Positions 1-12,295 of a stretch of 24,474 nt of DNA are shown here, piece after piece (position 1 is the first letter of the stretch; each line of letters opens with the position of its first letter). Under the pieces are notes generated by a model. It saw only the letters and a program-made list of their open reading frames with translations. It had not been told where the DNA came from and did no database searches. Source of the stretch: Gemmatimonadota bacterium (GTDB lineage Bacteria; Gemmatimonadota; Gemmatimonadetes; Palauibacterales; Palauibacteraceae); NCBI GenBank assembly GCA_046758745.1, contig JBHIAV010000043.1, positions 1-24,474 of the forward strand. The letters are read 5' to 3'. Both the position numbers and the translations under genes were made by a program.

Positions 1-1671
1 CCGCTGATGCTCGCCGTGAAACGTGTCGGCGTATCCCTCGCACAGAGGAACCGTGAGTTCGTACGACTGTCCCACGTACCGCACGTCGAGCTCGCGGTAC
101 ACCGCGATCTCCTCGGCGGGAACTCCCTCCCGGGCGATCTCCCGCGCGCCCAGCTCGGCCAGGGGCGCGACCAGATCCACCAACCGGCCGTGCGGCGTCT
201 CCCCCGGAAGCATGACCGTCTGCACGTAGTCCCTGACGACGTGGGCGACCAGCATCCCGAAGGCCGAAAGCGTCGACGCCCCGCGCGGAACCATGACGGT
301 GGCGGCTCCGAGCGCGCGCGCGAGCTCGCATGCGTGCAGCCCTCCGGCTCCTCCGAACGAGACGAGAACGAAGTCGGCCGGGTCGTGTCCTCGCTCCACG
401 CTGACCCTGCGGAGCGCCCGTTCCATCCCGGCGTTGGCCACGCGGATCACCCCGAGCGCCGCGACCCGGGCGAGGTCCAGGCCGTCCCTCGCGGCCACAC
501 CGGCTTCGCGGCCCAGCTTCTCCAGAGCCGCCCGCGCCGCTTCGGCGTCGAGACGAAACTCTCCCCCAAGGAAGCGATCCGCGGCCAGCCGTCCGAGAAC
601 GAGGTTTGCGTCCGTGATGGTGGGAAGCGTGCCGCCCCGCCCGTAGCAGATCGGCCCGGGCTCGGCTCCCGCGCTGCGCGGGCCGACTCGCAGCGCACCG
701 GCGGCGTCGACCCGGGCGATCGAGCCGCCGCCGGCGCCCACCGTGTGGATGTCGATGATCGGCACCCGGATCGGGATCCCGTCGATCTCCCCCTCGCTCG
801 TCAGCCGGACCCCGCCGTCGGCCAGCGAGACATCGGTAGAGGTCCCCCCCATGTCAAAGCTGATCACGCGCTCGTGTCCGCCCAGACGCGCGACGTGCAG
901 CGCGCCCACCACGCCGCCCGCCGGCCCGGAGAGGAGGGAGCGCACCGCCTGGCTGCGCGCCGTGACCGCCCGTGTGCTTCCGCCGTTCGACTGCATGATG
1001 CGAAGGTCCCGGGCGCGAAGACTCGACTCGAGACGCCCCACATACCGATCCACCACGGGCGACAGGTACGCGTTCACGGCGGTCGTGCTCGTCCGTTCGT
1101 ATTCGCGGAACTCGGGGAGGATCTCGCTCGATGCGGAGACGGCGAAGCCGCCGGCTCGGAGCGTTTCCGCCACGGCCCGCTCGTGGTCCGGAAGGAGAAA
1201 GGAGAAGAGCAGGCTCACCGCGACGGACTCGGCTCCGCACGCCCGGAGCTTCTCGACCAGGCGCGGGAGCTCGCCCGCCTCGAGAGGGATGAGGGCGCGG
1301 CCCTCGTGGGTCACCCGCTCGGTGACCTCGAAGCAGAGGTCGGCCTGGATGAGCGGCCTCGGTCGTCGCGCGGCGAGATCGTAGATGCTCGCCCGGTTCT
1401 GCCGCCCGATGGTGAGGAGGTCGCGAAAGCCCTCCGTCACCACGAGGGCCGTGCGGGCCCCTCTTCGTTCCAGCAGGGCGTTGGTCGCCACCGTGGAGCC
1501 GTGGACCACCGAGGGCGGCTCTCCGCCCGAAAGCTCGGACAGCCCGTGGAGGACGGCCTCCGCCGGGTCGCCGGGCGTGGAGAAGCGCTTGAAGGTCCGG
1601 AGCTCGCCCGTCCTCTCGTCGAAGAGGACGAAGTCGGTGAAGGTGCCCCCGATGTCGACCGCGACGCGCAT
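1..1671 (-). CDS. Hydantoinase A / 5-oxoprolinase family protein (3' end runs off the window)
   Basis: Manual minus-strand translation from ATG at 1671: MRVAVDIGGTFTDFVLFD...; internal FDMGGTSTDV, IIDIHTVGAGGGSIA, GPRSAGAEPGPICYG and DVRYVGQSYEL motifs. Absent from the ORF track because its stop lies outside the window. Confidence 0.93.
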   Translation of the reverse strand, partial: MRVAVDIGGTFTDFVLFDERTGELRTFKRFSTPGDPAEAVLHGLSELSGGEPPSVVHGSTVATNALLERRGARTALVVTEGFRDLLTIGRQNRASIYDLAARRPRPLIQADLCFEVTERVTHEGRALIPLEAGELPRLVEKLRACGAESVAVSLLFSFLLPDHERAVAETLRAGGFAVSASSEILPEFREYERTSTTAVNAYLSPVVDRYVGRLESSLRARDLRIMQSNGGSTRAVTARSQAVRSLLSGPAGGVVGALHVARLGGHERVISFDMGGTSTDVSLADGGVRLTSEGEIDGIPIRVPIIDIHTVGAGGGSIARVDAAGALRVGPRSAGAEPGPICYGRGGTLPTITDANLVLGRLAADRFLGGEFRLDAEAARAALEKLGREAGVAARDGLDLARVAALGVIRVANAGMERALRRVSVERGHDPADFVLVSFGGAGGLHACELARALGAATVMVPRGASTLSAFGMLVAHVVRDYVQTVMLPGETPHGRLVDLVAPLAELGAREIAREGVPAEEIAVYRELDVRYVGQSYELTVPLCEGYADTFHGEHQR

Positions 1672-1791
1672 GGGACGAGGATATCCGGGGCGATCCAGCT
1701 TCGCGAGCGGAGGCTCCGGCTTGGCCAGCGGGCAGTACGGGTCCGAGAGTGGGACGGTTCGGGTCGGTATGCCCGCGCGCCCGACGTCGTC

Positions 1792-3129
1792 CTATCGGAG
1801 CGAGCTCACGATCATCGAGTAGAAGACGAACCCCGTGATCACCGGCATCACGAAGCGGATGAGGAAATACCACCCCGGAAGCAGCTTGCGGGTCAACGGC
1901 CCGGCGCCGTCGGCCAGCTCCGCGACCGGGTCGTGCATGAACCACCCGACGGCGATGGTGATCAGAAAGGCCCCGAGGCCGAGGAGCAGTCCGCCGGCGA
2001 TCTCGTTCATCGAGGCGAGGACGCGGAGCGAGTACGCGGGGGCGATGCCGAGCAGCGCCACCCCGAGCCCCACGGCCATCGTCGCCTTCTTTCGCTCGAC
2101 GTGCATCTCATCGATGACCGAAGAGACCAAGACCTCGAGGAGGGAGATGGTGGAGGTGAGAGCCGCCACCGAGAGGGCGGCGAAGAAGAGCACGCCGATG
2201 CCGCGCCCGAGATCGCCCATGAGCGCGAAGGCGCCGGGGAGGGCGATGAACAGCACTCCCTCCGCCTCGTCCGCCGTGAGGCCGATCACCTGATCGCTGA
2301 ACCCGAGCGCGAACACGATCGGGAAGGTCACCAGGCCGGCGGCGAACGCCACGCTGAAGTCGGCCACCGCGATGATCCCGCTCTCCCGACCGAGGTCGTG
2401 GTTCTTCCCCAGGTAGGACGCGAAGGTGAGCATCGCTCCCATGCCGAGGCTGAGCGAGAAGTAGGTCTGGGCGGCCGCATCCCCGAGGATCTTCAGGTTC
2501 AGGAGCTCGTCGAACCGGGGCGCCAGGTAGAAGGAGTAGCCCTCGGCGGCGCCCGCCAGGGTAGCGGCCCACACGGCCAGCCCCACGAGCATGAGGAAGA
2601 GCGTCGGCATGAGGATGAGCGCCGCCCTCTCGATGCCTGCCCGCACGCCGCCCATCACGACGAGGGCGGTGAGCGCGACGAAGCCTACATGGTAGAGGGC
2701 GGCCGCGGGGCCGGTTGCAATGTTGCCGAAGTGCTGGCCGGGCTCTACGGGGAGGCCGGAGAGGAGCGCCTCCACTCCGTAGCGCACGGCCCAACCGGCT
2801 ATGACCGAGTAGAAGGAGAAGATCACGAAGCCGCCGGCGACGAACATGTAGCCGGCGGGCACCCAACTGCGGCCCGCCACCCGCCGCAGGGCCCCGATCG
2901 GGCTCATGGCGGCCCGTCGGCCGATGGCGAGCTCCGCCAGGAGCAGCGGGACGCCGACCAGGAAGGTGAGGGCGATGTACACCACCACGAACGCCGCCCC
3001 GCCGCTCGAGGACGCCGTGGCGGAGAAGCGCCACATGTTGCCGAGGCCGACGGCGCCCCCGATGGCGGCCAGAAGGAAGCCGAGCTGCGATCCCCACGCG
3101 CCCCGCGACGACCCCCCGTCTCCTTCCAT
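1792..3129 (-). CDS. Sodium-dependent transporter, NSS/SNF (LeuT-like) family
   Basis: GFLLAAIGGAVGLGNMWRF TM1 motif, GGAAF, QTYFSLSLGMGAMLTFASY, many hydrophobic helices; 445 aa. Confidence 0.95.
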   Translation of the reverse strand: MEGDGGSSRGAWGSQLGFLLAAIGGAVGLGNMWRFSATASSSGGAAFVVVYIALTFLVGVPLLLAELAIGRRAAMSPIGALRRVAGRSWVPAGYMFVAGGFVIFSFYSVIAGWAVRYGVEALLSGLPVEPGQHFGNIATGPAAALYHVGFVALTALVVMGGVRAGIERAALILMPTLFLMLVGLAVWAATLAGAAEGYSFYLAPRFDELLNLKILGDAAAQTYFSLSLGMGAMLTFASYLGKNHDLGRESGIIAVADFSVAFAAGLVTFPIVFALGFSDQVIGLTADEAEGVLFIALPGAFALMGDLGRGIGVLFFAALSVAALTSTISLLEVLVSSVIDEMHVERKKATMAVGLGVALLGIAPAYSLRVLASMNEIAGGLLLGLGAFLITIAVGWFMHDPVAELADGAGPLTRKLLPGWYFLIRFVMPVITGFVFYSMIVSSLR

Positions 3130-3210
3130 CTCCCCACCTCGCGGCTGGAGGGTTGGCCCGGTGGCCCCGGCCCGCGTCCGTTCGACGCGTTCGCGGCGGA
3201 GCTGGTCGCC

Positions 3211-3651
3211 TCAGCGGCCCGAGTTCGGTCCCTCTTCTTCCTCGAGTCCCCAAACGGCGGGAGTGGCGAGCTCGATACAGTTCCCGGCCGGGTCCCGCAG
3301 ATAGAGCGAGCGGCCGCCCCCCGGCCACTCCATGTCGGACTCCACGTCCACGCCGTGGTGCCCGAGCCGCTCCCGCCACAGGGTGATCTCACGCTCGGAG
3401 ATGGCGAAGGCCGCGTGGCCTGCCCCCCGCGCCCCATGCAGAGGGACGATGCTCCCGCCGACCGCCGGTGACGGCGCGCTCGTCCTTTCGGGGTTGAAGA
3501 CGAGGAACACCCCCCGGCCGCAGCGGAAGAAGACGTGCCGTCCCGGCTCGCGTGCGATCACCTCCATCCCGAGCACCGTCGAGTAGAAACGCTCGGCCGC
3601 CTCCAGGTCGTCGGCGTACACACACGTCTCCAGAACACGGGAAACCCGCAT
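3211..3651 (-). CDS. VOC family (glyoxalase/bleomycin resistance) protein
   Basis: Likely start MRVSRVLETCVYADDLEAAERFY; GHAAF and GGRSLYLRDPAGNCIELA motifs. Start reassigned from 3789 to 3651. Confidence 0.9.
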   Translation of the reverse strand: MRVSRVLETCVYADDLEAAERFYSTVLGMEVIAREPGRHVFFRCGRGVFLVFNPERTSAPSPAVGGSIVPLHGARGAGHAAFAISEREITLWRERLGHHGVDVESDMEWPGGGRSLYLRDPAGNCIELATPAVWGLEEEEGPNSGR

Positions 3652-4554: not shown

Positions 4555-6105
4555 ATGAGGCGAGCGGCTCCGACATTGGCGCTGGCCCTCGCAGCGACCG
4601 TTCTTCCGGGCCGGGCGACGGGACAGACCTTCTACTCCGACGACCCGGTGCTGCGAGCGATCTGGACGGAGGGGATGGAGAAGTCGCAGCTCTACCCGTT
4701 GGCCCAGGTGCTCCTCGACTCGATCGGCCCGCGCCTCACCGGCTCCCCGGGTTTCCTGGCCGGCGGCGACTGGTTGCTCCGCACGTACCAGAGGTGGGGA
4801 ATCGCCGCGCGAAAGGAGGAATACGGAACGTGGGGGAGTTGGCGCAGGGGGGTCACGCACATCGACCTCCTCGCCCCTAGAGTCCGCACCCTCGAGGGAA
4901 CGCTGCTCGCCTGGAGTCCCGGGACGGAGGGCCCGATGGAGGGTGACGCCATCATGCTCCCCGATCTCGCCGACAGTGCCGCTCTGGACGACTGGCTCCC
5001 CATGGCGAAGGGGATGTTCGTGCTGGTCTCGCTCCCCGAGTCCACGTGCCGCGCCGACCAGGAGTGGGAGGAGTACGCCACGCCGGAGTCCTTCGAGCGG
5101 ATGAAGGCCGCGCGCGACTCGGCGCGCCGGGACTACTTGGCCCGCTTGCGCAGCATCGGCTTCCGGGGGCTGCACGACAGGATCGCGCGGGCGGGGGCGG
5201 CGGCGATCGTGACGGCGCGCTGGTCCGGTGGGTGGGGGGTGAACAAGGTCCAGGCCGCCGAGACCCGGGAGGCCCCGACGATCGACCTGAGCTGCGAGGA
5301 CTATGGGCTGGTGTACCGCCTGGCCGAGAGGGGCCAGGGGCCGCGCATCCGGCTGAACGCCGATGCGGAGTTCCTCGGCGTGGTACCCGCCTTCAACGTC
5401 ATCGCAGAGCTCCCCGGAACGGAGAAGCCCGAGGAGTATGTGGTGCTTTCGGCCCACTTCGACTCCTGGGACTCCGCGTCCGGCGCGACCGACAACGGGA
5501 CGGGGACGCTCACCATGCTCGAGGCGATGCGGATCCTGGCGAGGACATATCCCCGGCCGAAGCGGACCGTCCTGGTGGGTCACTGGGGTGGGGAGGAGCA
5601 GGGGCTCATCGGTTCGACCGCGTTCGCGGAGGACCATCCCGAGGTGGTGGAGGGCCTCCAGGTCGCGTTCAACCAGGACAACGGCACGTGGCGGATCGAG
5701 TACATCAAGATGCAGGGGTTCAGCAAGGCGGGGGCGAACCTCGCGCGGTGGATCACCCAGGTGCCGGATGAGATCAAGCGGCACATCGAGCTGGACCTGC
5801 CCGGCCTTCCCGACCATGGCGGGAGCGACCACAAGTCCTTCGTGTGCCACGGCGCACCGGGCTTTCGGCTCCAGTCCAGCTATCCCGAGTACCGGCAGTA
5901 CACCTGGCACACGAATCGGGACACCTTCGACAAGATCGTGTTCGATGACCTGAGGAACAACGCGACGCTCGCGGCGATGCTGGCCTATCTCGCCTCCGAG
6001 GATTCCGAGCGCGTGCCGCGCGACCGCATAGTGCTCCCGGCCGACGAGCAGGGGCGGCCGATGAGCTGGCCGCGCTGCTCGGCTCCGCGCAGGATTCCCG
6101 GGTAG
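4555..6105 (+). CDS. Secreted M28 family metallopeptidase (carboxypeptidase Q-like)
   Basis: Signal peptide MRRAAPTLALALAATVLPG; IGPRLTGS, SAHFDSWD, GATDNGTG, GEEQGLIGS, SDH and WHTNRDT motifs. Start reassigned from 3940 to 4555. Confidence 0.93.
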   Translation: MRRAAPTLALALAATVLPGRATGQTFYSDDPVLRAIWTEGMEKSQLYPLAQVLLDSIGPRLTGSPGFLAGGDWLLRTYQRWGIAARKEEYGTWGSWRRGVTHIDLLAPRVRTLEGTLLAWSPGTEGPMEGDAIMLPDLADSAALDDWLPMAKGMFVLVSLPESTCRADQEWEEYATPESFERMKAARDSARRDYLARLRSIGFRGLHDRIARAGAAAIVTARWSGGWGVNKVQAAETREAPTIDLSCEDYGLVYRLAERGQGPRIRLNADAEFLGVVPAFNVIAELPGTEKPEEYVVLSAHFDSWDSASGATDNGTGTLTMLEAMRILARTYPRPKRTVLVGHWGGEEQGLIGSTAFAEDHPEVVEGLQVAFNQDNGTWRIEYIKMQGFSKAGANLARWITQVPDEIKRHIELDLPGLPDHGGSDHKSFVCHGAPGFRLQSSYPEYRQYTWHTNRDTFDKIVFDDLRNNATLAAMLAYLASEDSERVPRDRIVLPADEQGRPMSWPRCSAPRRIPG

Positions 6106-6130
6106 CGACCATGTTCGATCGCGATCGCTC

Positions 6131-6205
6131 CATCAGGTTGGGCACGAAGCCGTAGGCGTTCTTCGCCGCCTGCAGGGTCTCCCGTGACCCCTCGGGCGCC
6201 GATTG
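6131..6205 (-). pseudogene. Short relic of a carboxymuconolactone decarboxylase/AhpD-like (peroxidase-related) gene
   Basis: Minus-strand QSAPEGSRETLQAAKNAYGFVPNLM resembles the N-terminal APE...GFVPNL segment of CMD/AhpD-like proteins; no start codon or CxxC core follows. Confidence 0.6.
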
Positions 6206-6269
6206 CGCGGCTGGACCTTCGACGTGGCGGCAGCGGCCGTGCCCTGTGGAGGACGGCGGTCGGGAACCT

Positions 6270-6298
6270 TTGACACTCCGGTGACGGTAGACTAGCAT
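6270..6298 (+). promoter_or_regulatory. Sigma70-type promoter of the cysteine operon leader
   Basis: TTGACA (6270-6275), 17-bp spacer, TAGCAT (6293-6298). Confidence 0.8.
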
Positions 6299-6307
6299 GA
6301 GCCGACC

Positions 6308-6406
6308 ATGAGCATGCACGTGACGCGATTCTGGACCGCCGCTTGTATCTGTCCGGGGCCCACCAGAGGGTGGCCGCGGTCGCGCGCGGGTGTGCACGTG
6401 AGGTAG
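6308..6406 (+). CDS. Putative Cys-containing leader peptide (32 aa, MSMHVTRFWTAACICPGPTRGWPRSRAGVHVR)
   Basis: ATG 9 nt after the -10 box (near-leaderless, no SD); TGT-ATC-TGT at 6344-6352; TAG at 6404-6406; lies between the promoter and a terminator. Confidence 0.65.
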   Translation: MSMHVTRFWTAACICPGPTRGWPRSRAGVHVR

Positions 6407-6431
6407 CCGTACCTCGAGGGATCGGAAGCGC

Positions 6432-6468
6432 GACGCCGCGAGCCACCGCTTGCGGCGTCTTCGTTTCT
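6432..6468 (+). terminator. Intrinsic terminator (attenuator) upstream of cysteine synthase
   Basis: 12-bp stem GACGCCGCGAGC / GCTTGCGGCGTC (one G-U pair), loop CACC, followed by TTCGTTTCT. Confidence 0.8.
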
Positions 6469-6501
6469 CAGGCCCGGAGAGTGTTTCCAGGAGAGCCGAA
6501 G

Positions 6502-7515
6502 GTGAGCGATCACGGTGGAGGCACGCGATGGAGGTACCGGCCCCCGGCGGCCGGCCGGCCGGTCCAGCGTGCCGCGCCCCCTCCGCCCGCCCCGGGGGCG
6601 CTCTACGAGACCGCCGACCTGCCCGCGGGCGCCCGGGCCCTGGTGAAGCGGATCGGAGGCACTCCCCTGATCCCGCTTCCCTCGCCCCGTCCCTCGGTGC
6701 GGATCTACGGCAAGGCGGAGTGGTTCAATCCGGGCGGTTCGGTGAAGGATCGACCGGCGTGGGCGATCGTGTCGGAGGCGCTCGCCGCGGGGCGGATCGG
6801 GCGCCGCCGACTCCTCGACGCCAGCTCGGGAAACACGGCCATCGCGTACTCGATGCTCGGGGCCGCGATCGGCTTCGGAGTCACCATCTGCCTCCCGGCC
6901 AGCGCGAGCCGGGAGCGCCGGCGGACACTGGACGCGTACGGCGCGGAGCTGGTCATCACGGACGCGTTGGAAGGGAGCGACGGCGCGATCCGATGGGCAC
7001 GCGAGCTGGCCGGGGCGGAGCCCGACCACTACTGGTATGCCGACCAGTACGGCAACGCCGCGAACTGGCGCGCCCACTATCACTCGACCGCCGAGGAGGT
7101 GTGGCATCAGACGCGCGGTGGCGTCACGCACTTCGTGGCCGGGCTCGGCACGACCGGCACTCTGGTCGGGGCGGGACGAAGGCTGCGCGAGCTGAACCCC
7201 GGGATTCGCGTCATCGGGGTGCAGCCGGCAGAGCCGCTGCATGGGATCGAGGGGCTCAAGCACCTGGAGACGGCGATCCGGCCCTCCATCTACGATCCCG
7301 CCGTCCCGCACGCCCAGGTAGGCGTGGAGACGGAAGAGGCCCAGGCGCGGGCACGGAGACTGGCACGCGAGGCTGGGATTCTCGCCGGCGTCTCCTCCGG
7401 GGCGGCCTATGCGGCCTGCCTCCGAGTCGCGGCCGAGGTGGAGAGCGGGGTCATCGTGACCGTGCTGCCCGACGGAGGGAGTCGCTACCTGAGCGAGAGC
7501 TGGTGGCATGAATGA
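6502..7515 (+). CDS. cysM: PLP-dependent cysteine synthase family protein (CysM-like)
   Basis: KAEWFNPGGSVKDR (PLP lysine), ASSGNT, GLGTTGT, GVSSGAA and VTVLPDGGSRYLS motifs. GTG start at 6502 after AGGAG; exact start uncertain. Confidence 0.9.
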   Translation: MSDHGGGTRWRYRPPAAGRPVQRAAPPPPAPGALYETADLPAGARALVKRIGGTPLIPLPSPRPSVRIYGKAEWFNPGGSVKDRPAWAIVSEALAAGRIGRRRLLDASSGNTAIAYSMLGAAIGFGVTICLPASASRERRRTLDAYGAELVITDALEGSDGAIRWARELAGAEPDHYWYADQYGNAANWRAHYHSTAEEVWHQTRGGVTHFVAGLGTTGTLVGAGRRLRELNPGIRVIGVQPAEPLHGIEGLKHLETAIRPSIYDPAVPHAQVGVETEEAQARARRLAREAGILAGVSSGAAYAACLRVAAEVESGVIVTVLPDGGSRYLSESWWHE

Positions 7516-7969
7516 GCCGGGGCGGCCGGAGATCCTGGTCCTTCCGCAGCGGCTGGCCGAGCGGATCGCGGCCGAGATGGAGAAGGCATATCCCGCCGAG
7601 GGCTGCGGGGTGCTGCTCGGCCTCGTGCGGGACGGGCGGCGCGAGGTCGAACGAACCGTCCCCGTCCCCAACCGCTGGGACGGGCGGAGAGACAGGTACC
7701 GGATCGACCCGGCCAGGCTACGGCGGCTGTTGGAGGAGGAGGATGCCGGAGGGCCGACGGTGCTCGGTTTCTATCACTCTCATCCGGACTGCGAACCGGT
7801 CCCGTCGGAGACGGACCGGGCCAACGCCTGGCGGTGGTATCATTATCTGATCGTCCCCACGAGGGATGGCGTCGCCGGAGGTCCGCGGGTGTGGGAGCTG
7901 GACCCGGAGGAGCACAGATTCGTCGAGCGCGAGCTCCGGACGGCGGTCGGGAGGGAAACCCGCGACTGA
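7508..7969 (+). CDS. JAMM/MPN+ (M67) metallopeptidase, Mec-like
   Basis: YPAEGCGVLLG and FYHSHPDCEPVPSETD (E...HxH-x7-S-x2-D); overlaps the end of the synthase gene by 8 nt. Confidence 0.92.
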   Translation: MNEPGRPEILVLPQRLAERIAAEMEKAYPAEGCGVLLGLVRDGRREVERTVPVPNRWDGRRDRYRIDPARLRRLLEEEDAGGPTVLGFYHSHPDCEPVPSETDRANAWRWYHYLIVPTRDGVAGGPRVWELDPEEHRFVERELRTAVGRETRD

Positions 7970-8030: not shown

Positions 8031-9584
8031 ATGGCCAGAGTGACGATCGCGATCCCGACGCCGCTCCGTCCCTTCGTGGATGGGCGGAGCGAGGTGGAGG
8101 TCGAGGGGCGGACGGTCGCGGAGGCGCTGCAGAGCCTGTTCGACCAGAACGAGCGGCTGCGGGCCCAACTGTACGGGGATGACGGAAGCCTGCGGAACTT
8201 CGTGAACGTATATCTGGATCGGGAAGATATTCGGAACCTCGAGGGCGAGGCGAGCGAGCTGCGGGAGGGCTCTCGGCTCAGCATCGTCCCCTCGATTGCG
8301 GGCGGCACGTCGAAGTCCGTGAGACCGGCGCCTCCCGCCGGCCGCGGGGCGCGCCCGGCCGCGGCACCCCCGTCTCCCGATGCTTCCGGGGCGGCGCCTC
8401 CGGGCGCCACCGAGCCGGCCGCCGGCGCAGGGGGAAACAGCGGGTTCACCCCGGACGAGCTCCGGCGCTACAGCCGCCACCTCACCATGCCGGAGGTGGG
8501 GCTCGAGGGGCAGCGGAGGCTCAAGAACGCCAGCGTTCTCCTCGTCGGGGTGGGGGGCCTTGGTTCGCCTGCCGCGCTGTACCTGGCCGCGGCGGGGGTG
8601 GGTCGCCTGGGGCTCGTCGATTTCGATGTGGTGGAGTTCACCAACCTCCAGAGGCAGGTGCTTCACGACACGCAGTCCGTCGGACGGCCCAAGCTCGAGT
8701 CGGCGCGCCGCCGGATCCAGGGTCTCAACCCCGAGATCCAAGTGGAGGTGCACGAGGCCCGCCTGACCTCCGCCAACGCGCTCGACGTTCTCCGCGGGTA
8801 CGACCTCGTCGTGGACGGGAGCGACAACTTCCCCACCCGCTACCTGGTCAACGACGCCTGTCTCATGCTCGGGATTCCGACCGTGTACGGGGCGATCTTT
8901 CGTTTCGAGGGGCAGGCCTCGGTCTTCGGCGTGCCGGGTGGACCGTGCTATCGGTGCCTCTTCCCCGAGCCGCCGCCGGCCGATCTCGTGCCCAACTGCG
9001 TGGAGGCGGGGGTCCTCGGCGTGCTGCCGGGGATCGTGGGGACGATCCAGGCGGCCGAGGCCGTCAAGCTCATCCTCGGAAGGGGGCAGAGCCTGGCCGG
9101 CCGCCTCCTCCTGGTGGACGCCCTCGCCATGGAGTTCCGTGAGCTGGAGATCCGCCGGGACCCCGAGTGCCCCGTGTGCGGAGAAAGCCCGACCGTCACC
9201 GAGCTCATCGACTACGAGCAGTTCTGCGGCATGGGCGCGAGCGCGGAAGCGGACCGCGAGATCCCCGAGATCGAGGTGGCCCAGCTGAAGGTGCTCCTCG
9301 AGGACGGGGCACCCGTGCAGATCCTCGATGTGCGCGAGCCGTACGAGTGGGAGATCTGCAATCTCGGCCCCCAGGGGGCTCGTCTCATTCCGGAGGGCGA
9401 GCTGGCGGAACGCCTCCGCGAGCTCGATGCCGACGGCCGTCTGGTCGTGCACTGCCGATCCGGGGGACGCAGCCGAAAGGCGGTGGAGTTCCTTCGAGAG
9501 TTCGGGTTCACGAACGCCGTGAACCTGAAAGGCGGGATCCTGGCGTGGGCCCGCGAGATCGATCCCGAGATGAAGGCCTACTAA
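8031..9584 (+). CDS. moeB: Fusion: MoaD/CysO-like ubiquitin-like sulfur carrier + Pro/Ala linker + MoeB/ThiF adenylyltransferase + rhodanese (MoeZ-like)
   Basis: aa 1-92 beta-grasp pattern (IPTPLR...FVNVYL...SIVPSIAGG); RYSRHL, VGVGGLGS, NLQRQ, CYRC and CPVC; C-terminal DVREPYE and CRSGGRS; GAGGAG SD. Confidence 0.95.
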   Translation: MARVTIAIPTPLRPFVDGRSEVEVEGRTVAEALQSLFDQNERLRAQLYGDDGSLRNFVNVYLDREDIRNLEGEASELREGSRLSIVPSIAGGTSKSVRPAPPAGRGARPAAAPPSPDASGAAPPGATEPAAGAGGNSGFTPDELRRYSRHLTMPEVGLEGQRRLKNASVLLVGVGGLGSPAALYLAAAGVGRLGLVDFDVVEFTNLQRQVLHDTQSVGRPKLESARRRIQGLNPEIQVEVHEARLTSANALDVLRGYDLVVDGSDNFPTRYLVNDACLMLGIPTVYGAIFRFEGQASVFGVPGGPCYRCLFPEPPPADLVPNCVEAGVLGVLPGIVGTIQAAEAVKLILGRGQSLAGRLLLVDALAMEFRELEIRRDPECPVCGESPTVTELIDYEQFCGMGASAEADREIPEIEVAQLKVLLEDGAPVQILDVREPYEWEICNLGPQGARLIPEGELAERLRELDADGRLVVHCRSGGRSRKAVEFLREFGFTNAVNLKGGILAWAREIDPEMKAY

Positions 9585-9756: not shown

Positions 9757-10512
9757 ATGAGCCTCGAGGATCGCTTCTCAGCCTATTCCCGCGACTACGC
9801 CCGCTTTCGGCCCGCCTATCCGCCGCCCCTGTTTGAAGCGCTGGCCCGTGAGACGCCCGCGCGTGTCCTGGCCTGGGACTGCGCCACGGGAAACGGACAG
9901 GCGGCCGTCGGTCTCGCCGGCTGCTTCAAGCGAGTGGTGGCCACCGACGCCAGCCAAGCGCAGATCGCGTGCGCGAGGTCCCATCCGCGCATCGAGTACC
10001 GGGTCGCGCCGGAGGTGGCAAGCGGGCTCGCCAACGGAGCGGCCGACCTCGTCACCGTGGCCCAGGCGCTCCACTGGCTGGACCGTCCGGCCTTCTACGC
10101 CGAGGCGCGGCGCGTGCTGGCGCCCGGCGGGGTCGTGGCGGCCTGGTGCTACGGTCTCGTGCGGATGACGCAGCCGATCGACCGCCTCATCGAGGAGTAC
10201 TACCACGAGACCGTGGGCCGGTACTGGGCGCCGCAGCGGCGGCTGGTCGAGGACGGATACCGGTCGATCGACTTCCCCTTCGAGGAGCTGTCGCTTCCGC
10301 CCTTCGAGATCGAGCGGCCCCTTACGCTCCCCGAGCTCGCCGGCTACGTGCGAACGTGGTCGGCGACCCGCGCCTTCATGGAGAGCGAAGGGTGGGATCC
10401 GGTGGGCGATCTCGAGCGACGGCTGGCGGAAGCGTGGGGGAAGGCGGAGCGCCACCGCGCCGTATGGCCGCTCAGTGTTCGCGCAGGGTGCACCCGCGGG
10501 CCAAGCGGCTGA
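9757..10512 (+). CDS. Class I SAM-dependent methyltransferase
   Basis: MSLEDRFS...YARFRPAYP, WDCATGNGQ motif I, ADLVTVAQALHW, RVLAPGG. Start reassigned from 9676 to 9757. Confidence 0.92.
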   Translation: MSLEDRFSAYSRDYARFRPAYPPPLFEALARETPARVLAWDCATGNGQAAVGLAGCFKRVVATDASQAQIACARSHPRIEYRVAPEVASGLANGAADLVTVAQALHWLDRPAFYAEARRVLAPGGVVAAWCYGLVRMTQPIDRLIEEYYHETVGRYWAPQRRLVEDGYRSIDFPFEELSLPPFEIERPLTLPELAGYVRTWSATRAFMESEGWDPVGDLERRLAEAWGKAERHRAVWPLSVRAGCTRGPSG

Positions 10513-10831
10513 CGGCGTCCGCGCCCACCCCCCTTCGGGAGCAACCGGTGTAGGCGAAGCGGCCGCTCGCGCCGCGCCGGCCCGATCGCCTGAAGCGGCT
10601 CCGACCGCATCCGACCTGTCGACAGCGCCGGGCCGGCGCGTTACGGTATCCGGCGGGACGGGCCGAGGCCCAGCCTTGGAGACGGAAAGCCGACGGTCGA
10701 GTGGCTTCAGGAGGTCATCCATGATCGCGCGACGCCCTTTCGGGGCTTTGCTCGCGACAGGTTGGCACCGTGCCGCGGTGTAGCGGGTTGAAGAAGACGG
10801 AACGGTCCGCGGCTTCATCAGGAGGAAGGAG

Positions 10832-12295
10832 ATGGGACGGATAGCCGCCCGAGCCCGCTCAGGCGGAGTGGTCGGAGGCGGGCTCCTGGCGCTGGGCCTC
10901 GCTGCGTGCGTCACCAACCCTGCGACAGGCGGCCTGCAGCTCTCTCTGATCGGCGAGGGGAGGGAGATCGAGATGGGGCGGGAGGGGGCTGCGCAGGTGG
11001 AGGCCTCCATAGGTCTGTACCAGGACGACGCCCTGCAGGATTACGTCTCCGAAATCGGCCTCCGGATGGCCGCCGTCTCGGAGCGGGCCCACCTTCCCTG
11101 GCGGTTCCGAGTCGTCGAAGATCCCGTGATCAACGCCTTCGCTCTGCCGGGCGGCTTCATCTACGTGGCGCGGGGCATCCTGGCGAACTTCAACTCCGAG
11201 GCGGAGCTCGCCGCCGTGCTCGGCCATGAGATCGGCCACGTGACGGCCCGGCACTCGGTGGAGCAGATCAGCCGCGCGCAGCTCGCTCAGATCGGGTTCG
11301 GCCTGGGATCCATCTTCGCCCCGGAGATCGCCTCCGCCTCCGACTTCGTGGGCCTCGGCCTCAATCTCCTCTTCCTCAAGTACGGCCGCGACGCCGAGCG
11401 TCAATCCGACGAGCTGGGACTCCGGTACATGGGCCGCGTGGGGTACGACAAGCGGGAGATGGTGAGCGTTTTCACCATGCTCGAGCGCACGAGCGAGGCG
11501 CGCGGGGGGAGCTCGATTCCGACGTGGCTGAGCACCCACCCGGACCCGGGAGACCGGCTCGAGCGGACCGCGAGGCTGATCCACGAGTCCGGAGGAATGA
11601 CGGGCGGCATCGTGCGTCGGGAGCAGTACCTGCGGAGGATCGATGGCCTCGTGTTCGGCAAGAACCCGCGCCTCGGCTATTTCCGGGAGGAACTCTTCCT
11701 GCACCCCGAGCTCGAGTTCCAGGTCCGGTTTCCCGATGGCTGGAAGACGCGGAACCTGTCGCAGGCCGTTGTGGGGGTGAGCCCACGGCGGGACGCCCTG
11801 ATCCAGCTCACCATCGAGAGCGCAGACACGCCGGACGACGCAGCGCGGGACTTCTTCTCGCAGAGTGGGGTGGACGGTGGGGTCACTTCGCGGGCGCGGA
11901 TCAACGGCCTGACAGCGGTCTCCGGGGAATTCCGCGCCCGCAGCCAGCAGGGGACGCTTGCCGGTGTGGTGACCTTCGTTCGGCACGGGGGCAACACGTA
12001 CCAGCTGCTCGGATACACCTCCTCCAGGCGGTTCCGGACATTCGAGGGCATCTTTCGCTCCTCCTTCGACAGCTTCGAGCCGCTCACCGATCGGAGCGCG
12101 CTGGCCGTCCGACCCAAGCGCGTCCGCCTCGTCACTCTCGACGAACCGATGACGATCGAACGGTTCGCCGAGCGCTACCCCTCCACCGTATCGCTCGAAA
12201 CACTCGCGCTGATCAACGGCGTGGGGGCGGGTGAGACCCTGCAGGCCGGCCGTACGTACAAGCGCGTGGTCGGCGAAGGAGTGCCGACCCCGTGA
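10832..12295 (+). CDS. M48 family zinc metalloprotease lipoprotein (BepA/YfgC-like) with C-terminal LysM-like segment
   Basis: Lipobox LAAC-VTNPATG, NAFALPGG, HEIGH, ERQSDELG, LSTHP; strong SD (AGGAGGAAGGAG). Confidence 0.93.
   Translation: MGRIAARARSGGVVGGGLLALGLAACVTNPATGGLQLSLIGEGREIEMGREGAAQVEASIGLYQDDALQDYVSEIGLRMAAVSERAHLPWRFRVVEDPVINAFALPGGFIYVARGILANFNSEAELAAVLGHEIGHVTARHSVEQISRAQLAQIGFGLGSIFAPEIASASDFVGLGLNLLFLKYGRDAERQSDELGLRYMGRVGYDKREMVSVFTMLERTSEARGGSSIPTWLSTHPDPGDRLERTARLIHESGGMTGGIVRREQYLRRIDGLVFGKNPRLGYFREELFLHPELEFQVRFPDGWKTRNLSQAVVGVSPRRDALIQLTIESADTPDDAARDFFSQSGVDGGVTSRARINGLTAVSGEFRARSQQGTLAGVVTFVRHGGNTYQLLGYTSSRRFRTFEGIFRSSFDSFEPLTDRSALAVRPKRVRLVTLDEPMTIERFAERYPSTVSLETLALINGVGAGETLQAGRTYKRVVGEGVPTP

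Follow-up and report, generated by a model that had tools for sequence, protein, structure and literature searches.

The classical leader-peptide attenuators are those of Escherichia coli and Salmonella, namely trpL, hisL, pheL, thrL and leuL. In these systems a short open reading frame (ORF) rich in codons for the end product stands before a terminator and the first biosynthetic gene, and the leader RNA folds either into helices 1:2 and 3:4 or into helix 2:3. Cysteine has long been without a classical attenuator: the mycobacterial small ORFs (sORFs) that have been studied act on translation, and the actinobacterial candidates have no terminators. Here we describe a candidate element of the classical layout for cysteine in a 24,474-nt stretch of a Gemmatimonadota genome (contig JBHIAV010000043.1 of assembly GCA_046758745.1; the whole stretch is called the window below), in which an sORF with two cysteine codons, an intrinsic terminator and a mutually exclusive antiterminator precede an operon whose first gene encodes a CysM-like cysteine synthase (cysM). 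From the comparative evidence presented here, it is highly probable that the operon is controlled by a ribosome-mediated transcription attenuator of the trp/his type that would sense Cys-tRNA, as had been proposed in an initial annotation of the window.

Several described systems come close to this element. In mycobacteria, leaderless poly-Cys sORFs such as Ms5788A were reported to sense cysteine with a translational output: the poly-Cys tract pairs with the Shine-Dalgarno (SD) sequence of the gene that follows, and cysteine had no effect on transcription beyond the leader (Canestrari et al., bioRxiv 10.1101/834739, published in Mol Microbiol 2020). According to the same report, attenuation mediated by an upstream ORF (uORF) had not been described for cysteine. 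Like these leaders, the window element has a Cys-codon sORF probably placed at the mRNA 5' end and is associated with sulfur and cysteine genes, several operons being concerned in each phylum. Unlike them, it has Cys-Ile-Cys in place of consecutive Cys codons and a terminator with a conserved antiterminator, and its SD sequence is not sequestered by the Cys tract in silico. Candidate Cys leader peptides were also predicted, by comparative genomics, upstream of actinobacterial cys operons; they are characterized as 'without obvious terminators', and Rho dependence was suggested (Seliverstov et al. 2005, PMC1262725). They share with the Gemmatimonadota leaders the short ORFs with runs of Cys codons before cys operons, but terminators are universal in the latter. 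A further uORF, uORFC-8-2, was described before cysS in Rhodobacterales; it has two conserved Cys codons in a stem and an intrinsic terminator, and read-through at low Cys-tRNA was predicted (Brewer et al. 2021, PMC8632094). As described, uORFC-8-2 belongs to a cysteinyl-tRNA synthetase gene of one alphaproteobacterial order and carries tandem Cys codons at positions 14-15, whereas the window element precedes a cysM-like gene, has its relatives in Gemmatimonadota and carries its Cys codons at positions 13 and 15; it is by these descriptions that the two are set apart here. The initial annotation had known of no terminator-type Cys attenuator on this operon type in this lineage, and none was found for this operon or phylum, but uORFC-8-2 shows that one had already been predicted elsewhere. 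The genes themselves are known to be regulated in Mycobacterium tuberculosis, where direct control of mec-cysO-cysM and moeZ by SigH (PMC4803200) and control of the same genes by AosR (PMC8280819) have been reported. This set comprises the same genes (CysM, JAMM, sulfur carrier and MoeZ), but its control is exerted at the promoter by a sigma factor or transcription factor and involves no attenuation. Full-text searches, whose coverage left out most subscription journals and supplements, returned no publication linking Gemmatimonadota or the cysM/JAMM/sulfur-carrier operon to leader-peptide attenuation. The mechanism is textbook; the sequence family, the combination of amino acid and operon, and the phylum are new to the searchable literature.

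The source assembly of the window has 3.07 Mb in 130 contigs, a GC content of 68% and a completeness of 87%. Four DNA sequencing runs of a single study contain this DNA, two of them perhaps its source, and no RNA run is listed for it. The leader is located in a gap of about 400 nt between a peptidase-M28 gene, which ends at 6105, and the CysM-like gene (Table 1). The initial annotation, made from the sequence alone, had listed a near-consensus promoter (TTGACA-17-TAGCAT), a near-leaderless 32-codon ORF with TGT-ATC-TGT, a small hairpin around its stop codon, a 12-bp terminator with a U-rich tail and a downstream CysM/JAMM/Ubl-MoeB operon, and all of these are present as it described them. The features of a classical attenuator are found together: an sORF enriched in Cys codons, a terminator before the first gene, an antiterminator exclusive of it, and a 1:2 helix that adjoins the Cys codons in the in silico geometry; the antiterminator is counted among them although its covariation is weak or absent. 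Two regulatory codons suffice in trpL as well. The window element differs from the classical attenuators in the amino acid that would be sensed, in its unrelated sequence family, in its host phylum and in the CysM/JAMM/sulfur-carrier operon that it precedes, and also in having a probably nearly leaderless sORF and an Ile codon between the Cys codons, at the apex of helix 1:2. The features that distinguish uORFC-8-2, namely cysS, Rhodobacterales and tandem Cys codons, are absent from the window.

The leader was compared with those upstream of orthologous genes. The closest named carriers of the window-type CysM protein are metagenome-assembled genomes (MAGs) labelled Gemmatimonadales or Gemmatimonadota (65-72% identity), and the next closest are Armatimonadota and Acidobacteriota, so that the organism is not an actinobacterium and the actinobacterial frame in which the leader had been placed was wrong. 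A protein search of 60 relatives gave 28 cysM loci (E <= 1e-100, the window's own counted), of which 10 belong to the window's family (f1) and 18 to a sister family of the same order (f2). The f2 leaders form alignment A1 and the f1 leaders, four of them from one genus, alignment A3. A Cys-cluster sORF stands at the same upstream place in 24 of the 28 loci, examples being MRRRDRICSCPCICRHG..., MVKLCCKCRHCICRHG... and MKGVNRCGCPCPCGCHGCAC...; the other four comprise a degenerate sORF (C-x4-C, L016), a sequence made unreadable by N (L008) and two loci without a leader (L004 and L029). In 28 of 28 leaders examined, a hairpin of -16.9 to -29.9 kcal/mol and a T-rich tail follow the sORF stop. The hairpin is found 17-46 nt past the stop, or 80 nt in L013, the sORF of which is cut short, and most relatives have clean tracts of T5-7. 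The comparison upstream of orthologues that the initial annotation had called for thus recovered the Cys sORF and the terminator, and the antiterminator complementarity is conserved as well, as detailed below. Three named Gemmatimonadota MAG loci also have leaders close to that of the window (..AACYCPGH.., ..AACACPS..), but they duplicate genomes of genus g15 and are not independent. With the 261-nt window leader as a DNA query against 61 relatives, only one match of 33 nt was obtained, which is the terminator in G023; the search was nearly empty because the leaders are too diverged for BLAST.

A covariance model built from A3 (R1) was run on 114 genomes of the family, and gave exactly one match in each of 26 positive genomes. 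The 16 strong matches (E <= 2e-7) all lie before CysM-type ORFs; seven were those found with the tblastn cysM anchor and nine were new, the downstream ORF of the latter showing a GK.EW.NPGGSVKD motif by eye. An in-frame CC/CxC sORF was read in 11 of 11 newly examined leaders before a CysM-type ORF, including one cut by a contig end. Seven weak R1 matches (six in genus g16, plus G028) have no Cys sORF and were discarded as false positives arising from the terminator part of the model. A second model, built from f2 (R2), does not detect the window's own leader and finds nothing at E <= 1 in the window's genome, which therefore shows how far f1 and f2 have diverged. In genus g2 the gene order is JAB-ThiF-cysM, and there an sORF with CCC.C and a terminator precede JAB, the first gene. 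The element therefore belongs to the operon and not to cysM as such. These facts bear on the view that the unit is an independent small gene, encoding a Cys-rich micro-protein or a small RNA that acts in trans, and that its position has no regulatory meaning. The self-contained layout of promoter, sORF and terminator would suit such a gene, and trans functions of attenuator RNAs and leader peptides are known from Sinorhizobium. In every case, however, the unit shares the operon's strand and precedes its first gene by 60-150 nt, and it moves with the operon when the gene order changes; conservation of the peptide is poor beyond the Cys cluster and those stretches that also serve as helix strands, and a conserved antiterminator would have no role in a stand-alone gene. 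We therefore give the trans-acting gene very little credence.

The folding of the window leader was calculated for the whole RNA and for RNA cut within the terminator. The whole leader (6305-6470) has a minimum free energy (MFE) of -82.4 kcal/mol (z -2.18 vs shuffles), and this fold consists of helix 1:2 and the terminator. Taken in isolation, helices 1:2, 2:3 and 3:4 have energies of -40.5, -35.0 and -24.6 kcal/mol, respectively. Helix 1:2, which would serve as protector (anti-antiterminator), has about 30 bp in the MFE structure, 6312-6344 pairing with 6366-6395, and the Cys codons are at its apical end. The initial annotation had proposed that GACCGC (6334-6339) could pair with GCGGTC (6376-6381) as a protector; both segments exist, but the MFE structure uses this other, much longer register. 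When the RNA is cut at 6447, the MFE structure contains the antiterminator 6369-6385:6428-6447, exactly the pairing that had been described; this is so for all the masks applied in which region 2 stays accessible, the footprint of a ribosome stalled on the Cys codons included. The small hairpin around the sORF stop is enclosed by the antiterminator whenever the latter forms. The antiterminator pairs more strongly than expected by chance: the duplex has an energy of -35.8 kcal/mol, compared with -24.5 +/- 3.0 kcal/mol in 1000 dinucleotide shuffles of the upstream segment, three of which reach it, and with -21.5 +/- 4.1 kcal/mol for 1000 random 73-mers of the same genome, of which one does. A single copy of the terminator core CCGCGAGC...GCTYGCGG is present in the 3.07-Mb genome, and the core does not vary among the family leaders (10 of 10); perfect 9-bp hairpins followed by TTTT give only 11 matches (about eight distinct sites) in this genome. 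The element is therefore no generic terminator.

These figures, together with the conservation, leave it very unlikely, at the far edge of what need be considered, that ORF, hairpin and complementary stretches came together by chance in a GC-rich gap. At 68% GC, stable helices and short ORFs containing two Cys codons are indeed common, and shuffled segments also pair the free terminator arm. In a background sample of 76 cysM loci of other phyla, scored on the sORF criterion alone, 14 had a CC or CxC sORF, the positions being scattered and the ORFs long and implausible, and 4 of 76 passed the strict criterion of 3 or more Cys within 8 codons. But the whole arrangement is conserved over two families and more, and the antiterminator energy is reached by only a few controls in a thousand, as given above.

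The conservation of the helices was then assessed in the two alignments. In the 18 f2 leaders, 80.8% of the cells of the protector are paired, with compensatory changes in five of nine pairs, and the helix starts 5 nt past the last Cys codon (CACGGCG... / ...CGCCGTG). The covariation score of the f2 protector and terminator is reached by 0 of 500 shuffles, and slid controls pair 29-56%. The f2 antiterminator, GCCGTGCCGG with CCGG-C-CGCGGC, is paired in 88.3% of cells vs 25-51% in slid controls; three of its pairs show a double change, and its covariation is unexceptional (93 of 500 shuffles reach the score). In the ten f1 leaders the terminator is paired in 98.2% of cells and is almost invariant in sequence, and the antiterminator, formed by region 2 (G-Y-T/C-CGCGGT) and the terminator 5' arm, is paired in 78.9% vs 29-48% in slid controls. 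The conserved CCGCGGT-type motif of region 2 occupies columns 56-64 of A3. In the f1 MFE folds, region 2 forms the 3' strand of a hairpin and the Cys codons fall within the 5' strand of the same hairpin. The terminators of f1, f2 and genus g2 differ in sequence, and each has, by eye, a near-copy of its own 3' arm upstream; this recurrence clade by clade supports the antiterminator. Duplex z-scores for the post-Cys segment with the terminator 5' arm were also calculated for 40 leaders. Their median is -1.46, with 34 of 40 below 0 and 18 of 40 below -1.64, and the value of the window is -3.89.

The Cys codons themselves are strongly enriched. In the ten f1 leader sORFs they make up 31 of 355 codons (8.7%), vs 0.82% in the long ORFs of the genome. 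The regulatory codons of the window sORF are TGT 6344-6346 and TGT 6350-6352, and TGT accounts for both of them and for 60 of 109 Cys codons over the 28 leaders, vs 15.5% of the Cys codons in the genome's long ORFs. This preference for a rare codon could sharpen stalling, or it could reflect a constraint of RNA pairing. Both Cys codons are invariant in A3 (TG of the first and all three bases of the second), the second being TGT in 10 of 10 rows. Many relatives carry runs of CC to CCCCC, and the window sORF has no consecutive Cys codons. Outside the Cys cluster and the stretches doubling as helix strands, the peptide is poorly conserved. Much of the sORF is evidently constrained as RNA, the covarying protector helix being an example, which would fit a real switch set by a ligand-binding fold or an RNA-binding protein, with Cys codons that are incidental to the RNA structure. 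However, a search of Rfam 15 (5800-7000, E <= 10) gave no family at the gathering threshold, the best being ASdes with 13.9 bits against a threshold of 40 (E = 8.1). Moreover, the frame, the start codon and the in-frame Cys cluster are kept in leaders too divergent for R2, the Cys codons are enriched about ten-fold, and unrelated-looking poly-Cys sORFs stand before other sulfur genes. A non-ribosomal switch is thus a distinctly unlikely account of the element.

In the ribosome-mediated attenuator that we favour, the events would be as follows. We infer a transcription start just upstream of the 32-codon sORF, and translation of this sORF. With Cys-tRNA in good supply, the ribosome would run through Cys-Ile-Cys, region 2 would be taken by region 1 or occluded, and the terminator stem (6432-6459) would form, so that transcription in the Cys-replete cell would stop near 6465, short of cysM. 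Under a shortage of Cys-tRNA, the ribosome would wait with TGT 6344 or TGT 6350 in its A site and cover or melt region 1 up to about 6362-6365. Region 2, free from 6366-6369 onwards, could then pair with 6428-6447 before the 3' arm of the terminator is made; the terminator 5' arm would be removed by this antiterminator, and RNA polymerase would read into the cysM, JAMM and ThiS-MoeZ-rhodanese genes. The choice would be kinetic, as in the classical cases, with helix 1:2 forming first if region 1 is free.

Several observations weigh against this reading. The initial annotation had asked for folds with and without a mask for the stalled ribosome; they gave the expected antiterminator in the RNA cut at 6447 (-48.0 kcal/mol when masked 5' of 6362), but the full-length RNA with the same mask keeps the terminator (-58.5 kcal/mol), and the terminator state still wins. 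The terminator state stays more stable despite the mask, and therefore the model needs kinetic, co-transcriptional control. In the truncated RNA, the antiterminator forms even without the stall mask. The f1 antiterminator shows conserved complementarity without covariation, because region 3, with the terminator 5' arm, never varies. In 6 of the 40 leaders the duplex z is above 0, no better than shuffles, and a per-leader count of arm nucleotides paired upstream after the stall mask did not beat mononucleotide shuffles, 8 of 100 of which reach the window's value. This count was dropped as uninformative in GC-rich RNA, and the duplex-energy z-scores were used in its place. The window's U-tract (TTCGTTTCTC) is interrupted and weaker than those of the relatives, and the window has only two Cys codons, which are not adjacent, where relatives have up to nine. 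The relatives are kin, and the counts overstate their independence. Two f1 loci, L004 (G011) and L029 (G008), are without the leader and have another coding region reaching cysM. R1 found no copy in the genomes of these two loci, and at both of them the element appears, on the sequence, to be lost or replaced. The coding DNA upstream of cysM in L029, translated by eye (...YDGSWTEYGSLVDVPVERG), is rhodanese-like in look.

The imperfect U-tract of the window would also suit the same sORF sensor with an output of the mycobacterial type, in which the cysM ribosome-binding site is unmasked or polarity depends on Rho, and the hairpin is merely structural or stabilizing. The only experimentally studied Cys sORFs, those of M. 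smegmatis (Ms5788A), act in this way, with cysteine-insensitive transcription (bioRxiv 10.1101/834739). In a fold of 6305-6540, however, the cysM SD sequence (6490-6495) is largely free, with a mean unpaired probability of 0.65, and shows no pairing to the Cys tract 6344-6352. A GC hairpin with a T-run, mostly a clean T5-7, is present in 28 of 28 leaders, and such strong sites are rare in the genome. A translational output is thus unlikely, and transcription attenuation is retained as the preferred reading.

Table 1 Positions of the leader elements and operon genes in the window, with the evidence for each
Feature	Positions	Strand	Evidence
GGAACC, possible extracytoplasmic function (ECF)-sigma -35 element; 17 nt on, GGT instead of GTT	6263-6268	+	imperfect match, overlaps the sigma-70-like promoter
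Sigma-70-like promoter, TTGACA (6270-6275), 17 nt, TAGCAT (6293-6298)	6270-6298	+	10/12 positions match
Leader sORF, 32 codons and stop, ATG start, MSMHVTRFWTAACICPGPTRGWPRSRAGVHVR	6308-6406	+	read from sequence
Region 1, 5' strand of the protector (anti-antiterminator) helix	6312-6344	+	MFE
Region 2, 3' strand of the protector; core 6369-6385 = 5' strand of the antiterminator	6366-6395	+	MFE, duplex energy
Small hairpin GAGGTA-GCCG-TACCTC around the sORF stop TAG (6404-6406)	6400-6415	+	in MFE
Region 3, pairs with region 2 (antiterminator) or region 4; holds the terminator 5' arm (6432-6443) and loop (6444-6447)	6428-6447	+	
Intrinsic terminator, 12-bp stem 6432-6459 (9 GC pairs), 4-nt loop, tail TTCGTTTCTC	6432-6469	+	hairpin -24.6 kcal/mol
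CysM-like pyridoxal phosphate-dependent cysteine synthase, first regulated gene	6502-7515	+	PF00291 9.2e-64; best NCBIfam cysM TIGR01138 9.9e-96, below cut-off
JAMM/Mec+-like metalloprotease, start overlaps the cysM end	7508-7969	+	PF14464 Prok-JAB 2.7e-24
ThiS-like sulfur carrier, MoeZ/MoeB-like adenylyltransferase and rhodanese in one 517-aa ORF	8031-9584	+	PF02597, PF00899, PF00581; MoeB/MoeZ models 1e-141 to 1e-150

The operon downstream of the leader has three genes. The cysM start is presumably GTG 6502, with GGAGAG (6490-6495) as its SD sequence. By their domain content, the three products are predicted to make cysteine by a sulfur-carrier-dependent pathway. ThiS, ThiF-MoeZ and rhodanese are fused in the window, whereas cysO and moeZ are separate genes of M. 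tuberculosis (PMC4803200). The fused carrier would either have to be cut free, perhaps by the JAMM protease encoded next to it, or have to act in cis. Two further long ORFs of the window, 7-3471 (+, 1154 aa) and 9778-11010 (-, 410 aa), had no Pfam match; given the high GC content, they could be either spurious frames or genes missing from the annotation.

The sigma-70-like site is the only one in 5800-7000, where shuffles give 0.1. The ATG of the sORF lies 9 nt past the end of the -10 hexamer, and this position suggests that the window sORF is nearly leaderless. In related leaders a different promoter-like motif is frequent: 15 of 28 carry GGAAC-N18-GTT at a distance of 20-105 nt before the sORF start, and the copy of the window is off-pattern. 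This ECF-type motif resembles the SigH consensus GGAAYR-N17-18-GTT (PMC4803200). The loci named with an ECF-type motif upstream of the sORF are L011-L013, L016-L022, L024, L025, L028 and L030; at L033-L035, GAAAC-N18-GTT was seen by eye about 10 nt before the ATG.

Units of the same kind were also found before other genes of the phylum. On an even sample of 151 phylum genomes, R2 gave 17 matches, nine of which are a poly-Cys sORF with a terminator, e.g. MTCTVLRRCGSQCCCCCRGTCC... and MTCCRSLCLCCCPCPCC...; the other eight have no Cys sORF and were rejected as false positives from the terminator part of the model. The additional weak R2 matches from five genomes (L158 and L163-L165) were set aside as unconvincing. 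No cysM lies within about 1.5 kb of any of the nine units. The ORFs downstream of them encode tandem rhodaneses (2), a 3'-phosphoadenosine 5'-phosphosulfate (PAPS) reductase (1), ATP-grasp-like proteins (2, and one more by N-terminal similarity), Prok-JAB (1), OsmC (1) and flavin mononucleotide (FMN) reductase (1). Judged from these predicted products, the mostly sulfur and thiol functions suggest that the device is used throughout the phylum. In the window's genome itself, a generic scan for a CC/CxC sORF, a hairpin and a T-run kept 24 of 1165 candidates, among which only the window's is leader-like and the others resemble coding or other sequence. This genome, 87% complete, thus yielded a single copy and gives no evidence of a multi-operon set.

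On balance, we lean towards the view that Gemmatimonadota have a phylum-wide set of terminator-type Cys leader attenuators (a 'Cys ribulon') over several sulfur operons, many of them behind ECF-sigma promoters of the SigH/SigE-like type. The operons concerned may include cysM-JAMM-sulfur carrier/MoeZ, tandem rhodanese, adenosine 5'-phosphosulfate (APS)/PAPS reductase, ATP-grasp ligase and FMN reductase. If this is true, thiol stress would set initiation and the supply of Cys-tRNA would set read-through, and cysteine biosynthesis would have its first classical attenuation system, one that parallels the translational system of mycobacteria by convergence. In mycobacteria cysA2 encodes a rhodanese, and this sORF target is of the same type as the tandem-rhodanese ORFs after the Gemmatimonadota units. 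The convergence would lie in shared genes and sensor logic, with another output. For the window element, the full trp-type layout is conserved over two families of an under-studied phylum, on a predicted sulfur-carrier-dependent CysM pathway. It would readily explain how cysteine synthesis is kept in step with demand in these bacteria, and could serve in reporters as a compact natural switch that responds to Cys; it does not alter what is understood of attenuation itself.

Two minor observations were made on the matches of the covariance models. The ATP-grasp-like ORFs with the N-terminus ..IYYEHPDWFRPLFAELDRRG follow poly-Cys leader/terminator units at L142:1989-2945, L143:1675-2634 and L144:525-1490, in three genomes that belong to a different family of Gemmatimonadota, and could encode a ligase that uses cysteine, e.g. 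for a low-molecular-weight thiol. The weak R1 and R2 matches L131, L133-L136, L138 and L154 (genus g16) and L130 have in common a conserved element of about 60 nt, ...GGCGTCGCGTCGAGTCAGG..., which consists of a GC hairpin and a T-run and has no Cys sORF. The ORF after L130 looks different from the others, and in the g16 loci examined the GGCGTCGCGTCGAGTCAGG element lies directly upstream of a dapF-like ORF (MSLFSKYTGAGNDFV...).

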